Shown: in pieces, positions 21,275 to 32,729 of the stretch | Layout: each line of letters opens with the position of its first letter | Numbering within the stretch: the stretch's first letter is position 1 | NCBI RefSeq assembly: GCF_044647545.1 | Contig: NZ_CP172818.1 | DNA length: 64,000 nucleotides | Direction: 5' to 3' (one strand) | Source of the DNA: Escherichia coli | Lineage (GTDB): Bacteria; Pseudomonadota; Gammaproteobacteria; Enterobacterales; Enterobacteriaceae | Translations under genes and position numbers: made by a program | The notes under the pieces: generated by a model | What the model saw: only the letters and a program-made list of their open reading frames with translations | Databases searched by the model: none | Told to the model about the DNA's origin: nothing

Positions 21275-21303
21275 TTCTTACGCCTGTAGGATTAGTGAGA
21301 AGA
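21275..21303. promoter_or_regulatory. Candidate EvgA box in the emrK-evgA divergent promoter region
   Basis: TTCTTACGCCTGTAGGATTAGTGAGAAGA contains TTCYTAC / TGTARGA-like half-sites matching the EvgA inverted-repeat consensus. Confidence 0.45.
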
Positions 21304-21515
21304 CTTATAGTGCTAATGTGAAACTATAAATCATCGGTACAATCCCTGATTTTATTGTTGACATTTCATATATGCCGACTATTTATATGGTATACTTGTC
21401 GAATTATCTTAAAGGAAGCTCAAATTTTCTTATTTTTTTGAGAAAATGAGATGATGCCTTATGTCTGTATTACTACAGGGAGAAGGGAAATGCTTCATTG
21501 CAAAGGGAATAATCT

Positions 21516-22130
21516 ATGAACGCAATAATTATTGATGACCATCCTCTTGCTATCGCAGCAATTCGTAATTTATTGATCAAAAACGATATTGAAATCTTAG
21601 CAGAGTTGACTGAAGGCGGAAGTGCCGTTCAGCGGGTGGAAACACTTAAGCCTGATATCGTCATCATTGATGTCGATATCCCCGGAGTTAACGGTATCCA
21701 GGTGTTAGAAACGCTGAGGAAGCGCCAATATAGCGGAATTATTATTATCGTCTCCGCTAAAAATGACCATTTTTACGGGAAACATTGTGCTGATGCTGGC
21801 GCTAATGGTTTCGTGAGTAAAAAAGAAGGCATGAACAATATCATTGCGGCTATTGAAGCTGCAAAAAATGGCTACTGCTATTTCCCTTTCTCTCTCAACC
21901 GGTTTGTTGGAAGTTTAACGTCCGACCAGCAAAAACTCGACTCCTTATCGAAACAAGAAATTAGTGTCATGCGGTATATTCTTGATGGCAAGGATAATAA
22001 TGACATTGCTGAAAAAATGTTCATCAGCAACAAAACTGTCAGCACGTATAAAAGTCGCTTGATGGAAAAATTAGAATGCAAATCACTGATGGATCTTTAC
22101 ACATTCGCACAACGTAACAAAATCGGCTAA
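21516..22130 (+). CDS. evgA: Response regulator EvgA (NarL/FixJ family)
   Basis: 204 aa; receiver domain (IIIDDHP...D52-like) plus C-terminal LuxR-type HTH. Confidence 0.92.
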   Translation: MNAIIIDDHPLAIAAIRNLLIKNDIEILAELTEGGSAVQRVETLKPDIVIIDVDIPGVNGIQVLETLRKRQYSGIIIIVSAKNDHFYGKHCADAGANGFVSKKEGMNNIIAAIEAAKNGYCYFPFSLNRFVGSLTSDQQKLDSLSKQEISVMRYILDGKDNNDIAEKMFISNKTVSTYKSRLMEKLECKSLMDLYTFAQRNKIG

Positions 22131-22134
22131 CCAC

Positions 22135-25100
22135 ATGAAGTTTTTACCCTATATTTTTCTTCTCTGTTGTGGTCTTTGGTCGACCATAAGTTTCGCAGAC
22201 GGAGATTACATCGAATATCGTGGCATCAGTAGTAACAACCGTGTCACACTTGATCCACTACGTCTGAGCAACAAGGAATTACGTTGGCTCGCGAGCAAAA
22301 AAAATCTTGTGATTGCAGTACACAAGTCCCAAACAGCTACGTTGTTGCATACCGATTCGCAGCAACGGATTCGTGGTATTAATGCTGATTATTTAAATCT
22401 TTTAAAAAGAGCGTTAAATATCAAATTAACACTCCGGGAATACGCAGATCATCAAAAAGCAATGGACGCGCTGGAAGACGGTGAAGTTGATATAGTGTTA
22501 TCACATTTAGTTGCTTCGCCGCCTCTTAATGATGACATTGCTGCAACTAATCCTCTGATAATTACCTTTCCTGCGTTGGTCACTACCCTTCACGATTCAA
22601 TGCGACCGCTTACCTCATCAAAACCAGTAAATATTGCTCGAGTAGCAAATTATCCCCCAGACGAGGTAATTCATCAATCATTTCCAAAAGCAACAATTAT
22701 CTCTTTTACAAATTTATATCAGGCATTAGCATCCGTCTCAGCCGGACAGAATGATTACTTTATTGGTAGTAACATCATTACCAGCAGTATGATTTCCCGT
22801 TATTTTACTCACTCCTTAAATGTAGTGAAGTATTATAACTCACCGCGTCAATATAACTTTTTATTAACCAGAAAAGATTCAATCGTTCTTAATGAAGTAC
22901 TCAATCGATTTGTTGATGCTTTAACAAATGAAGTTCGCTATGAAGTATCACAAAATTGGCTTGATACAGGAAACCTGGCCTTTCTGAACAAACCATTAGA
23001 ACTCACTGAACATGAAAAACAGTGGATTAAGCAGCATCCCGATTTAAAGGTGCTAGAAAATCCTTACTCGCCACCCTATTCTATGACAGATGAAACTGGC
23101 TCAGTTCGGGGCGTGATGGGTGATATTCTTAATATTATTACCTTGCAAACAGGTTTAAATTTTTCTCCGATCACCGTTTCACACAATATTCATGCTGGGA
23201 CACAGCTTAACCCCGGTGGATGGGATATATTGCCCGCCGCTATTTATAGTGAAGATCGAGAAAATAATGTTTCATTTGCTGAAGCTTTCATAACAACGCC
23301 TTACGTTTTTGTCATGCAAAAAGCGCCTGACAGTGAACAAACATTAAAAAAAGGAATGAAAGTTGCCATTCCATATTATTATGAGCTTCATTCGCAATTA
23401 AAAGAGATGTATCCGGAGGTAGAGTGGATAAAAGTCGATAACGCCAGCGCTGCATTTCACAAGGTCAAGGAAGGTGAACTTGATGCTCTGGTCGCGACAC
23501 AGTTAAATTCGCGTTACATGATCGACCATTACTATCCTAATGAACTTTATCATTTTCTTATTCCCGGCGTTCAGAATGCATCACTTTCGTTCGCTTTTCC
23601 TCGCGGAGAACCGGAACTTAAGGATATTATTAATAAAGCACTGAATGCAATTCCCCCAAGCGAAGTTCTGCGCCTGACGGAAAAATGGATTAAAATGCCC
23701 AATGTGACCATTGACACATGGGACCTCTATAGCGAGCAATTTTATATTGTCACGACATTATCCGTTTTATTAGTTGGCAGTAGCCTTTTATGGGGATTCT
23801 ACCTGTTACGCTCAGTTCGTCGTCGTAAAGTCATTCAGGGTGATTTAGAAAACCAAATATCATTCCGAAAAGCACTCTCGGATTCCTTACCGAATCCAAC
23901 TTATGTTGTAAACTGGCAAGGTAATGTCATTAGTCATAATAGTGCTTTTGAACATTATTTCACTGCGGATTACTACAAAAATGCAATGTTACCATTAGAA
24001 AACAGTGACTCACCCTTTAAAGATGTTTTTTCTAATGCGCATGAAGTCACAGCAGAAACGAAAGAAAATCGAACAATATACACACAGGTATTTGAAATTG
24101 ATAATGGCATCGAGAAAAGATGCATTAATCACTGGCATACATTATGCAATCTGCCAGCAAGCGAACATGCTGTTTATATTTGTGGTTGGCAAGATATTAC
24201 CGAGACGCGTGATTTAATTCATGCACTCGAAGTAGAGAGAAATAAAGCGATCAATGCAACTGTCGCAAAAAGTCAGTTTCTGGCAACAATGAGTCACGAA
24301 ATAAGAACACCAATAAGCTCCATTATGGGCTTCCTGGAACTTCTGTCGGGTTCTGGTCTTAGCAAGGAGCAACGGGTGGAGGCGATTTCACTTGCCTACG
24401 CCACCGGACAATCACTCCTCGGCTTAATTGGTGAAATCCTTGATGTCGACAAAATTGAGTCGGGTAACTATCAACTTCAACCACAATGGGTCGATATCCC
24501 TACTTTAGTCCAGAACACTTGTCACTCTTTCGGTGCGATTGCTGCAAGCAAATCCATCGCATTAAGTTGCAGCAGTACGTTTCCTGAACGCTACCTGGTT
24601 AAGATCGACCCTCAGGCGTTTAAGCAGGTCTTATCTAATTTACTGAGTAATGCTCTCAAATTTACTACCGAGGGAGCAGTAAAAATTACGACCTCCCTGG
24701 GTCACATTGATGACAACCACGCTGTTATCAAAATGACGATTATGGATTCTGGAAGTGGATTATCGCAGGAAGAACAACAACAACTGTTTAAACGCTATAG
24801 CCAAACAAGTGCAGGTCGTCAGCAAACAGGTTCTGGTTTAGGCTTAATGATCTGCAAAGAATTAATAAAAAACATGCAGGGCGATTTGTCATTAGAAAGT
24901 CATCCAGGCATAGGAACGATATTTACGATCACAATCCCGGTAGAAATTACCCAACAAGTGGCGGCTATAGAGACAAAAGCAGAACAACCTATCACACTAC
25001 CTGAAAAGTTGAGCATATTAATCGCGGATGATCATCCGACCAACAGGCTATTACTCAAACGCCAGCTAAATCTATTAGGATATGATGTTGATGAAGCCAC

Positions 25101-25728
25101 TGATGGTGTGCAAGCGCTACACAAAATCAGTATGCAACATTATGATCTGCTTATTACTGACGTAAATATGCCGAATATGGATGGTTTTGAGTTGACTCGC
25201 AAACTCCGTGAGCAAAATTCTTCCTTACCCATCTGGGGGCTTACAGCCAACGCACAGGCTAACGAACGTGAAAAAGGGTTAAATTGCGGCATGAACTTAT
25301 GTTTGTTCAAACCGTTGACTCTGGATGTACTGAAAACACATTTAAGTCAGTTACACCAGGTTGCGCATATTGCACCTCAGTATCGCCACCTTGATATCGA
25401 GGCCCTGAAAAATAATACGGCGAACGATCTACAACTGATGCAGGAGATTCTCATGACTTTCCAGCATGAAACGCATAAAGATCTACCCGCTGCGTTTCAT
25501 GCACTAGAAGCTGGCGATAACAGAACTTTCCATCAGTGTATTCATCGCATCCACGGTGCGGCTAACATCCTGAATTTGCAAAAGTTGATTAATATTAGCC
25601 ATCAGTTAGAAATAACACCTGTTTCAGATGACAGTAAGCCTGAAATTCTTCAGTTGCTGAACTCTGTAAAAGAACACATTGCAGAGCTGGACCAGGAGAT
25701 TACTGCTTTCTGTCAGCAAAATGACTAA
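22135..25728 (+). CDS. evgS: Hybrid sensor histidine kinase EvgS (BvgS-like)
   Basis: 1197 aa; two periplasmic solute-binding-like domains, TM, HisKA (MSHEIRTP), HATPase, receiver and HPt domains. Confidence 0.92.
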   Translation: MKFLPYIFLLCCGLWSTISFADGDYIEYRGISSNNRVTLDPLRLSNKELRWLASKKNLVIAVHKSQTATLLHTDSQQRIRGINADYLNLLKRALNIKLTLREYADHQKAMDALEDGEVDIVLSHLVASPPLNDDIAATNPLIITFPALVTTLHDSMRPLTSSKPVNIARVANYPPDEVIHQSFPKATIISFTNLYQALASVSAGQNDYFIGSNIITSSMISRYFTHSLNVVKYYNSPRQYNFLLTRKDSIVLNEVLNRFVDALTNEVRYEVSQNWLDTGNLAFLNKPLELTEHEKQWIKQHPDLKVLENPYSPPYSMTDETGSVRGVMGDILNIITLQTGLNFSPITVSHNIHAGTQLNPGGWDILPAAIYSEDRENNVSFAEAFITTPYVFVMQKAPDSEQTLKKGMKVAIPYYYELHSQLKEMYPEVEWIKVDNASAAFHKVKEGELDALVATQLNSRYMIDHYYPNELYHFLIPGVQNASLSFAFPRGEPELKDIINKALNAIPPSEVLRLTEKWIKMPNVTIDTWDLYSEQFYIVTTLSVLLVGSSLLWGFYLLRSVRRRKVIQGDLENQISFRKALSDSLPNPTYVVNWQGNVISHNSAFEHYFTADYYKNAMLPLENSDSPFKDVFSNAHEVTAETKENRTIYTQVFEIDNGIEKRCINHWHTLCNLPASEHAVYICGWQDITETRDLIHALEVERNKAINATVAKSQFLATMSHEIRTPISSIMGFLELLSGSGLSKEQRVEAISLAYATGQSLLGLIGEILDVDKIESGNYQLQPQWVDIPTLVQNTCHSFGAIAASKSIALSCSSTFPERYLVKIDPQAFKQVLSNLLSNALKFTTEGAVKITTSLGHIDDNHAVIKMTIMDSGSGLSQEEQQQLFKRYSQTSAGRQQTGSGLGLMICKELIKNMQGDLSLESHPGIGTIFTITIPVEITQQVAAIETKAEQPITLPEKLSILIADDHPTNRLLLKRQLNLLGYDVDEATDGVQALHKISMQHYDLLITDVNMPNMDGFELTRKLREQNSSLPIWGLTANAQANEREKGLNCGMNLCLFKPLTLDVLKTHLSQLHQVAHIAPQYRHLDIEALKNNTANDLQLMQEILMTFQHETHKDLPAAFHALEAGDNRTFHQCIHRIHGAANILNLQKLINISHQLEITPVSDDSKPEILQLLNSVKEHIAELDQEITAFCQQND

Positions 25729-29763: not shown

Positions 29764-31014
29764 TCAGATGGCGTGGTTTTGCTTCATTGCAGCAATTTCA
29801 TCGTCGCTATAACCCAGCTCCTGCAATACAGCAGCGGTATGTTCACCTAATAGCGGCGCAGCTTTAATATCCGGCGTAAAGGCAGAGAATTTCATTGGAC
29901 AACCAACTGTCAGATATTTTCCACGCAACGGTTGTTCCACTTCGACAACACTGCCACTTTGGCGCAAAGAGGGATCAAGTGAAATTTCTTTCATACTTAA
30001 AACCGGTGCACAAGGAATATCAAACTGAGTCAAATAGGCCACAGCTTCATGTTTATCAATAGTGACAGTGTATTTTTCGATTTCAGCAAAAATATCGAAA
30101 ATATGTGGCTGTCGGGCATGGGCTGTACTGTATGCCGGATCGGTAATCCATTCTGGTTTGCCGATGGCTTTACAGGTGTTTTCCCAGTTTTGCTCCTGAA
30201 TAGTGAAATAAATATAGGCATTAGGATCGGTTTCCCAGCCTTTACATTTCAGGATCCAGCCAGGCTGACCACCACCCCCCGCATTACCACCGCGGGGAAC
30301 TGCATCACCAAATGTGCCATTCGGATACTGCGGGTATTCTTCCAGATAACCCAATTTATCGAGACGCTGCTGGTCGCGTAATTTCACGCGGCAAAGGTTC
30401 AACACGGCATCCTGCATTGACATGGTCACTCGTTGCCCACGCCCCGTTTTTTCGCGATGCAGCAAAGCAGCAAGTAAACCGATCAGTAAATGCATTCCGG
30501 TGTTGCTGTCACCCAACGCTGCAGCGCTTACCAGCGGCGGACCGTCCCAAAAACCCGTAGTAGATGCCGCGCCACCCGCTGCCTGAGCAACGTTTTCATA
30601 GGCTTTTACATTCACATAAGGCGAACACTCATCAAACCCTTTGATCGAACCAAAAATCAGACGTGGATTGATTTCTTGAATATGCTCCCAGGTGAAGCCC
30701 ATATGATCAATGGCCCCAGGATGAAAGTTCTCGACTAAGATATCAGCTTCGCGGATCAGCTTTTCCATTACCTCTTTGCCTTCCGCTGTTTTGGTATTTA
30801 ATTCAATAGAACGTTTGTTACTGTTAAGCATGGTGAAGTAAAGCGCATCGATATCAGGAATATCTCGCAGCTGGTGACGCGTTACGTCACCAACACCGGG
30901 ACGTTCAATTTTAATGACGTCAGCGCCAAACCAGGCCAGCATTTGAGTACAAGATGGGCCAGATTGCACACCGGTGAAATCGAGAACTTTAATTCCTTGA
31001 AGTGGAGTTGACAT
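29764..31014 (-). CDS. frc: Formyl-CoA:oxalate CoA-transferase Frc (YfdW)
   Basis: 416 aa, family III CoA-transferase, adjacent to oxc. Confidence 0.9.
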
Positions 31015-31264
31015 AGCAATACCTATTAGTTAATTAAATATGTGTTAATTTAGCGTTTATTTAAGACATAACGCCTCTATAAATAATCCGCAAAATATCG
31101 TCGTAGCTGCACTCGATATTTTTAAATTCCTGTATCAAGTACTGAAAATCATTTCATCGCTACTTCCAATTCCTTTCTGCATGGTAAGTAGTGAGGACGA
31201 AAAGAAGAATATGATAAATATTGGTTCGCGGTAATCAGAGAGAGCCGCGACATTTGTGATGTTA

Positions 31265-31282
31265 TTCTTACAACTGTAAGAA
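31265..31282. promoter_or_regulatory. Near-perfect EvgA box upstream of frc
   Basis: TTCTTACAACTGTAAGAA: 18-bp inverted repeat matching the TTCYTACA-N2-TGTARGAA EvgA consensus, about 250 bp upstream of the frc start. Confidence 0.6.
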
Positions 31283-31525
31283 GCGCCAGTGATTTACAAG
31301 TAAGGGTATGATTACGCTTTTTAAAGCGTACCATAAAACATAACATAATAAATGATTTGTGATAACACGGGATTATTGCGGTTTACTTTGAGGAAGATAA
31401 AATTCGAGTTTATAGAACCGCGAGCGCCAAATAATTTTATGGCCACAACCTGTCGTATTGTGGCCATAAAAAATTGTCGGCTGGAGGGAGTAAAATCCTT
31501 TACCTCAATATATTGCCTGTCAGCT

Positions 31526-32158
31526 TTAGTTCACAAACAGTGCTTCGCTATCGACGATGATTCCATCTTCCGCACCTTTAAGCGCCAGGTTTGCCTCGTA
31601 GTATTGCTTTTTATCAAGCAGTTTCTGCGCATCAGCAAGTGCATTACGAGTCTGTTTAAGCGGCATCAGATATTGGTTTTCCATTACACCAACACCGGCC
31701 AGGCGAAGCTCTTCCATTGCGCCCTTTTTATCCCCTTTCGCCATTTTTTCGTTGGCAATTTTTATCGCGGCTTCTTTTTCGGGTGTCGCTACATAACTCT
31801 CAGAAATTCCGACAGATGCATTAATGACAATATATTGGTCATCATTGACATTGGTCTTTTTACCTGGCTTTGCGAACTTTGCCCATTCGGTACTATCATC
31901 AGACAGCAAAGCGGAAGCTTCGTTGGTCAGTTCTTTTGCCTTTTCCGGATCGCCATGAAACAGAGCCAGGCGCGCTACCTGCACGTCACGCATCGCATAT
32001 AAACCTTGTTCAGAGATACGCTCTGCTGCTGCCGTTTTCTGGGTTTGCTTAACTTGCTGAGTTTGCTGTTGTGCCGCTACCGGTGCATTATCAGCAGCCC
32101 ATACAGTTGAAGATGCCAGAACTGCTGTGACCATCGTAGCCATAATTAAACGTTTCAT
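31526..32158 (-). CDS. yfdX: Periplasmic protein YfdX (EvgA-regulated, unknown function)
   Basis: 210 aa with signal peptide ([21 protein letters not shown]). Confidence 0.85.
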
Positions 32159-32256
32159 ACTTACCTCATTCTTTAACAGTTTTAGAAAACACCGCCATCA
32201 TATTGGGTGAGCATGAAATGAGAAATCAGAGAGCAACGGTCATTTTGAAAGGGTTA

Positions 32257-32311
32257 TCTTACAGTTGTAGTTATTATCGCAAGAAGTATTTTAGTCTTAC
32301 AATTGTAGGAA
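32257..32311. promoter_or_regulatory. Two EvgA-box-like repeats in the yfdX promoter
   Basis: TCTTACAGTTGTAG (32257-32270) and TCTTACAATTGTAGGAA (32295-32311), about 100-150 bp upstream of the yfdX start. Confidence 0.55.
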
Positions 32312-32453
32312 TATGCTTCCTGTCACAGAGAACTATTCTTATATACCAAAAAGAGATGTCATTTATTATATCGATGTAAATACTGATTAATTATATGTAA
32401 ATACAGCAATAACGTCGTAGGTTTTCAGTGAACCATTTTCAGGATAACTTTCT

Positions 32454-32729
32454 ATGAAAGTAAACTTAATGCTTTTTAGCTTATTTTTATTGGTCTCTAT
32501 TATGGCATGCAATGTTTTTGCATTTTCTATTTCTGGTGGTGGTAGTGAGGCGAGCTATAAAGAGACAGAAAAAACGTCAGCGATGACGACAACTCACTCT
32601 ACAAAATTTCAGCCATCACAGGCGATTTTGTTAAAAATGAGAGAAGATGCGCCACCATTAAACCTCACAGAAGAAATTCCGCCCCCTTTTCCGACAAAGG
32701 CGAATTATCTTATCCATCCTGTGCGATAG
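32454..32729 (+). CDS. ypdI: Small lipoprotein YpdI
   Basis: 91 aa with signal/lipobox-like N-terminus (LVSIMAC). Confidence 0.75.
   Translation: MKVNLMLFSLFLLVSIMACNVFAFSISGGGSEASYKETEKTSAMTTTHSTKFQPSQAILLKMREDAPPLNLTEEIPPPFPTKANYLIHPVR

Follow-up and report, generated by a model that had tools for sequence, protein, structure and literature searches.

The question raised by this locus is whether frc and yfdX, two neighbouring genes of Escherichia coli that are read in the same direction, are each switched on by the response regulator EvgA from a promoter of their own, or whether they are transcribed together from a single promoter upstream of yfdX. The sequence analysed, referred to below as the window, is a stretch of 64 kb (64,000 nucleotides) that shows 95–100% identity to E. 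coli chromosomes and 100% identity to that of strain FDAARGOS_497 and others, and it contains the region in the gene order evgAS / yfdE-yfdV-oxc-frc / yfdX / ypdI. According to the list of open reading frames and the K-12 annotation, evgA (21516–22130) and evgS (22135–25728) are located on the plus strand, so that the cognate two-component system (21516–25728) is present in the same window, 5–10 kb from the target boxes described below. The formyl-CoA transferase gene frc (also named yfdW; 29764–31014), the first gene of frc-oxc-yfdV-yfdE, and yfdX (31526–32158) were assigned from their open reading frames and the RefSeq annotation of genomes with 100% identity; both are on the minus strand, as are yfdE, yfdV and oxc, and ypdI (32454–32729, plus strand) is divergent from yfdX. 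The frc ATG at 31014 and the yfdX stop codon at 31526, with the yfdX ATG at 32158, all on the minus strand, delimit a spacer of 511 bp (31015–31525), the length given in the first-pass annotation. A 9-codon open reading frame, MLHCKGNNL (21490–21519, plus strand), overlaps the evgA start codon and corresponds to evgL (b4781) of the K-12 annotation.

Candidate EvgA sites were found upstream of both genes. The pattern used for scanning was TTCYTACANNTGTARGAA, which we take to be the published EvgA consensus; in K-12 it finds single sites upstream of safA, ydeP and yegR, which supports the consensus, and a text search of the literature for the consensus string found nothing. As a family, the sites follow an 18-bp inverted repeat, TTCYTACA-NN-TGTARGAA, from which the frc box deviates at 0, the distal yfdX box at 1 and the proximal yfdX box at 3 positions. 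The frc box TTCTTACAACTGTAAGAA (31265–31282) consists of perfect 8-bp arms around a 2-bp centre and has 0 mismatches to TTCYTACANNTGTARGAA, at the position given in the first-pass annotation; its end is separated from the frc ATG by 251 nt. Upstream of yfdX, the proximal box ATCTTACAGTTGTAGTTA (32256–32273) has 3 mismatches and the distal box GTCTTACAATTGTAGGAA (32294–32311), centred 38 bp further upstream, has 1 mismatch, both being located 98–153 bp upstream of the yfdX ATG. The two copies noted earlier in this promoter at 32257–32270 and 32295–32311 are the cores of these 18-mers. The box between emrK and evgA (21275–21292; 2 mismatches) served as a positive control within the window.

With up to 3 mismatches allowed, TTCYTACANNTGTARGAA has four matches in the 64 kb, as opposed to 0.54 expected, and none of 100 shuffled sequences reached four. 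The only match beyond the frc and yfdX boxes is the known emrK/evgA box, and all four are located upstream of EvgA-induced genes, which speaks against the palindromes being chance matches of no function, as does the fact that, by our own estimate from base frequencies, a perfect match over 16 positions is expected only about 1e-4 times per 64 kb. The motif scan that had been suggested as a check was carried out with a PWM trained on the four K-12 EvgA sites outside the cluster (safA, ydeP, yegR and emrK/evgA). The frc box reached 21.4 bits, the best value in the window for a site that was not used in training, and none of 200 shuffles attained it; of the yfdX boxes, the distal one reached 15.5 bits (attained in 19 of 200 shuffles) and the proximal one 13.1 bits (102 of 200), which on sequence alone is no better than chance. 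As a motif, the frc box therefore appears unambiguous and the distal yfdX box good; the proximal box draws its support from its position and conservation, not from its score, and this chance-level score is what can be said for the explanation by chance. For the three palindromes taken together that explanation is hardly credible, and for the frc and distal yfdX boxes it is effectively refuted.

The conservation of the boxes leads in the same direction, as their arms are under purifying selection and their centres free, which chance matches would not be expected to show. K-12 MG1655 has the same sequence at each of the three boxes, although its frc-yfdX spacer is only 95.5% identical (4.5% different). 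A 30-mer centred on the frc box gave alignments of 100% identity in at least 5,403 of the 5,407 E. coli records that it matched, and the shorter alignments among those listed still span the whole box. For the 30-mer of the proximal yfdX box, 4,076 records have no difference and 1,260 have two, which in the one record sampled from this class are the central bases; for that of the distal yfdX box, 2,297 records have none, 2,161 have one and 911 have two. Examples of each variant class were compared together with L002, a GTDB representative whose identity to complete E. coli genomes in this region is no higher than 89%; no sequence like it was found among them. In the variant examples and in L002, the changes affect either the two central bases or positions beyond the box, with the centres GT/GC for frc, AC/GT for the proximal and AT/AC for the distal yfdX box, and in L002 the centre alone of the frc box is altered. 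When six Escherichia sequences were aligned, variation was seen at 1 of 48 arm positions and at 4 of 6 central positions, compared to 20% of the intergenic columns; since three of the six had been picked for variation near the boxes, this is a conservative test. Our own binomial estimate, with the 20% as background, gives P of about 3e-4 for one or fewer variable positions among 48. Constrained arms around a free centre, as seen in these alignments, are what would be expected of an operator whose centre is left uncontacted by the bound dimer, and we read them as purifying selection on the half-sites that leaves the central dinucleotide free. A substitution of TTCTTACA by TTCTTCAA is given here as an example of how an arm of the EvgA box could be altered, as a design only.

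A related possibility is that the palindromes are bound mainly by another regulator of the NarL/FixJ family, above all RcsB. In Klebsiella pneumoniae, yfdX is orthologous, acid-induced and adjoins kvhAS, which resembles evgAS, and its promoter is activated by RcsB (PMC6394985); the regulator and its motif KMRGAWTMWYCTGS are thus different from those considered here. In the window, one weak match to the RcsB motif (32306–32319, 2 mismatches) extends into the outer arm of the distal yfdX box, but the frc box and the proximal yfdX box are free of such matches, and KMRGAWTMWYCTGS is not enriched, its 60 matches as against 44.5 ± 6.7 expected being roughly the number due to chance. Moreover, the boxes fit the pattern common to safA, ydeP, yegR and emrK/evgA, and in the literature binding is credited to EvgA. 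We therefore regard RcsB or another relative as the main binder as very improbable, and EvgA as the regulator to which the boxes belong.

If the frc box is an EvgA operator, it should stand in front of a promoter in the same way as other EvgA boxes. The six promoters of safA, ydeP, yegR, emrK, frc and yfdX were aligned on the end of the box, and all of them have a common layout, in which the box is followed by 24 nt, a pyrimidine-rich hexamer, a further 20–22 nt or so and an A/T-rich -10-like element, the core promoters being predicted. The hexamer and the -10-like element are GTCCTA and TATATT for safA, GTCTTA and TAATTT for ydeP, ATCCTA and TTATTA for yegR, GTCCTC and TTAAAT for emrK, CTCTGA and TATCAT or CATATT for frc, and CTCTGA and TATGAT for yfdX when counted from its proximal box. 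The CTCTGA element at frc (31235–31240, minus strand) lies 25–30 nt downstream of the box and probably falls within the -35 region or immediately precedes it; CTCTGATT is also found at yfdX, where the element (32226–32231, minus strand) lies 25–30 nt after the proximal box. In this respect frc and yfdX differ from safA, ydeP, yegR and emrK, which carry (G/A)TCYT(A/C) at the same place. The predicted -10 region of frc, TATCATATTCTT (31205–31216, minus strand; TATCAT or CATATT), is located 49–60 nt after the box, at the same offset as in safA, ydeP, yegR and emrK, and a TATCAT/TATTAT polymorphism at this position leaves a good -10 element in both forms.

From this geometry we infer a transcription start of frc near 31200 ± 3, which would place the centre of the box near -73. 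For yfdX, the predicted -10 element TATGAT (32197–32202, minus strand), found by the same comparison, would give a start near 32191 ± 3 and a leader of about 33 nt. It should be noted that the predicted -35 regions are poor and that the -10 assignments are ambiguous by 1–3 nt. At yfdX the canonical place is taken by the weak proximal box, with the better one, the distal box, 38 bp farther from the gene. Both promoters were reportedly mapped by Itou et al. in 2009. The supplements of the Cappable-seq, SMRT-Cappable-seq and acid-stress Ribo-seq studies contain no entry for frc, yfdX or their coordinates; we assume that these genes are poorly expressed when EvgA is not activated. Besides the hexamer, frc and yfdX have GCTCTCTGATT in common at an equal offset from the box (31226–31240 and 32217–32231, minus strand), a position at which the other four EvgA promoters have a (G/A)TCYTATT-like sequence resembling an EvgA half-site. 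The shared GCTCTCTGATT could be a promoter-proximal contact of EvgA or RNA polymerase, or could reflect paralogy of the frc and yfdX promoters.

A terminator-like hairpin (31435–31471, minus strand) begins 55 nt beyond the stop codon of yfdX, with a stem of 15 bp, a loop of 7 nt and the tail UUAUUUGG. Its folding energy of -23.1 kcal/mol corresponds to a z-score of -5.7, which none of 200 shuffles reached, and it combines the two features by which an intrinsic terminator is recognised, namely a stable stem-loop and a U-rich tract downstream of the stop codon. In addition, a two-sided change in the stem, which is G-C in this strain and A-T in K-12, CFSAN051542 (L086), L087 and L002, is compensatory and argues for a functional hairpin, which, as far as its structure and covariation indicate, is very probably the terminator of yfdX. 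The tail has 5 U in 8 positions and the U-tract is interrupted, which makes read-through plausible, and transcription from the yfdX promoter may possibly pass into frc. We propose that the hairpin separates the yfdX and frc units, at least partly.

The imperfect U-tract also lends some support to the main competing explanation, according to which a single transcript yfdXWUVE starts at yfdX, frc is reached by read-through from this promoter, and the frc box is redundant, weak, vestigial or an aid to enhancement or anti-termination. The designation yfdXWUVE operon is frequent in the literature, and all five genes are co-induced. On the other hand, the frc box matches the consensus perfectly, is fixed in about 5,400 genomes and has the same geometry as independent EvgA promoters, and a strong hairpin with a compensatory change stands after yfdX. 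The strain OkiPb01677 (L089, 17863–19833), in which yfdX is split by ISVsa5, keeps the annotated genes frc-oxc-yfdV-yfdE intact, an observation that concerns retention of the genes, not their expression. In CFSAN051542 (L086, 1–26), frc is annotated as a truncated pseudogene. Unequal induction of yfdX and yfdWUVE and the binding of EvgA before both units, which are described in the secondary literature, likewise speak against one transcript. Overall, we judge the single transcript to be an improbable explanation of the locus; as a contributor it is possible, and it leaves a perfect, fixed and canonically placed frc box, with a conserved terminator ahead of it, without explanation.

According to the legend of Figure 2 in Mullins et al. 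(2013; PMC3720670), inverted repeats bound by EvgA are present before both yfdX and yfdWUVE, and Masuda and Church (2003), as cited there, had already described these sites, with EvgA as their regulator, and concluded that there are two promoters, as reportedly had Itou et al. (2009), cited in PMC4222967. A review from 2021 lists yfdX and frc separately among the promoters strongly bound by EvgA (PMC8147483). In constitutive evgS mutants, the genes with the strongest induction include frc and oxc, and EvgA sites were found only at targets already known (Johnson et al., 2014; PMC4283999). Overproduction of EvgA raises yfdX about 1000-fold (PMC6339873), yfdX and frc are both induced at pH 5.8 (PMC10746267), and the induction of yfdX exceeds that of yfdWUVE by orders of magnitude (PMC4759549), which is consistent with separate units. 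A literature search for EvgA ChIP data found none. EvgA binding and the induction of yfdX and yfdWUVE are here taken from the literature; what was computed is the position of the boxes, which lie upstream of genes that rise on activation of EvgA/EvgS, as is required of members of the EvgA regulon. The two EvgA-dependent promoters claimed in the first-pass annotation, one for yfdX and one for frc, are supported by the invariant and perfect frc box, the shared geometry, the hairpin and these reports. This conclusion is already known, having been published and established in K-12 about twenty years ago, and compared to the published K-12 locus there is no substantive difference; the window comes from a non-K-12 strain in which the boxes are unchanged.

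The predicted start of frc implies a long leader of about 186–190 nt (31015–31204, minus strand), which follows from the promoter geometry. A long leader is not unique to frc, since the distance from box to ATG is 243 nt in ydeP. A strongly conserved block CTTCTTTTCGTCCTCACTACTTACCATGCAGAAAGGAATTGGAAGTAGCGATGAAAT (about 31109–31142, minus strand; columns 65–98 of alignment A7) is present in the leader, and in the region 31150–31200 a hairpin formed by ACUUGAUA and UAUCGAGU keeps its pairing despite five one-sided changes in other strains. No Rfam family matched the leader, its folding z-score is -1.8 and no double compensatory pairs were found among the strains compared, and a structured RNA is probably not present here. 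Two open reading frames were likewise discarded: a leader frame of 15 codons, MQKGIGSSDEMIFST (about 31130–31177, minus strand), is without a Shine-Dalgarno sequence and its C-terminus is not kept in L002, and a frame of 65 amino acids across the frc box (31149–31346, minus strand) is unannotated in K-12 and frameshifted in L002 by a deletion of 1 nt. On the yfdX side of the frc box, at a distance of 31 bp, lies a second perfect 18-bp palindrome with 8-2-8 architecture, TACGCTTTTTAAAGCGTA (31313–31330), the sequence of which bears no relation to the EvgA box. K-12 has the identical palindrome, and L087 and L002 have altered forms with one compensatory change; a binding site and a small hairpin are both conceivable roles for it.

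The yfdX boxes differ from those of the other promoters in their number. Most E. coli yfdX promoters have two boxes, which behave as a repeat unit of 38 bp, and the window (32256–32311) carries such a two-box allele. In OkiPb01677 (L089, 19932–20021), three boxes are present, for which Tandem Repeats Finder reports a period of 38, 2.4 copies and 98% match; a tandem duplication of 38 bp has produced a third, hybrid box in the middle, TAACTACAATTGTAAGAC. The 32-mer diagnostic of this hybrid box occurs in 414 of the 5,426 complete genomes of E. coli, among them that of IAI1, at up to 3 places per genome. Extra copies of the yfdX-promoter 30-mer were also considered as an insertion sequence or a paralogue; a plasmid search returned chromosome-like records only, and the copies were traced to the 38-bp tandem duplication. 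The three-box allele exists. That the boxes form an array with a period of 38 bp, the copy number of which shifts by unequal recombination between box cores and thereby tunes how strongly EvgS/EvgA drives yfdX relative to the single-box frc, is a tentative idea that we consider rather doubtful. In ETEC6 (L088, 2531–2793), an insertion of about 263 bp lies between the two yfdX boxes, between the equivalents of window positions 32273 and 32294, so that the distance to the distal box is increased by about 270 bp; it has IS5-like ends, contains an annotated truncated IS5/IS1182 transposase and is flanked by duplicated GTTATTATC.

Among the matches listed, the locus was found in one other Escherichia lineage (L002) and then in Moellerella and Providencia, and the closest Frc sequences outside Escherichia are, again among the matches listed, those of Moellerella (87%), Providencia (86%) and Paraburkholderia (78%). 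Within the 21-kb stretches examined around frc in Moellerella wisconsensis (L003) and Providencia stuartii (L004), no EvgA box was found. The frc-oxc module appears to be patchily distributed in Enterobacterales, and its wiring to EvgA looks specific to Escherichia.

The boxes at frc and yfdX resemble those of safA-ydeO, ydeP, yegR and emrKY/evgAS in K-12, all being 18-bp repeats of 8-2-8 architecture with 0–3 mismatches and the same promoter spacing. Within this set the frc box alone is a perfect palindrome, whereas the other EvgA boxes have a degenerate promoter-distal arm, and yfdX is the only promoter examined with two boxes, or three in some strains, at a period of 38 bp. Operators of the NarL/FixJ family, such as the 7-2-7 sites of NarL and the inverted heptads of Bordetella BvgA, the latter presumably the closest homologue of EvgA, are likewise bound by a dimer on an inverted repeat with an uncontacted centre at a weak sigma-70 promoter. 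Compared to these, the half-site described here differs in sequence and length (8-2-8, TTCYTACA), and tandem phased sites like those at BvgA promoters are found here only at yfdX.

Taken as a whole explanation of the locus, EvgA operators that serve two EvgA promoters, one for yfdX and one for frc, are in our opinion very likely. The three inverted repeats would be operators of EvgA as a response regulator of NarL/FixJ type. Activated by acid, EvgS would phosphorylate EvgA, a dimer of which would occupy each 18-bp palindrome, with one monomer per TTCYTACA half-site and the central 2 bp uncontacted. From about -73, EvgA would then recruit RNA polymerase to weak sigma-70 core promoters, presumably in a class I-type manner. 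At yfdX, the weak proximal box in the canonical position and the stronger box 38 bp upstream would together drive yfdX, and at frc the one perfect box would drive frc-oxc-yfdV-yfdE through the leader of about 190 nt.

To the published picture, the present analysis adds selection on the half-sites at the scale of the population, the argument from shared geometry and a minor polymorphism with three boxes in the yfdX promoter. The sites account for the way in which frc, oxc, yfdV and yfdE, the genes of oxalate-dependent acid tolerance, and YfdX, a periplasmic protein, are connected to the neighbouring acid sensor EvgS/EvgA, and also for the ability of the yfdX and frc units to differ in the extent of their induction.
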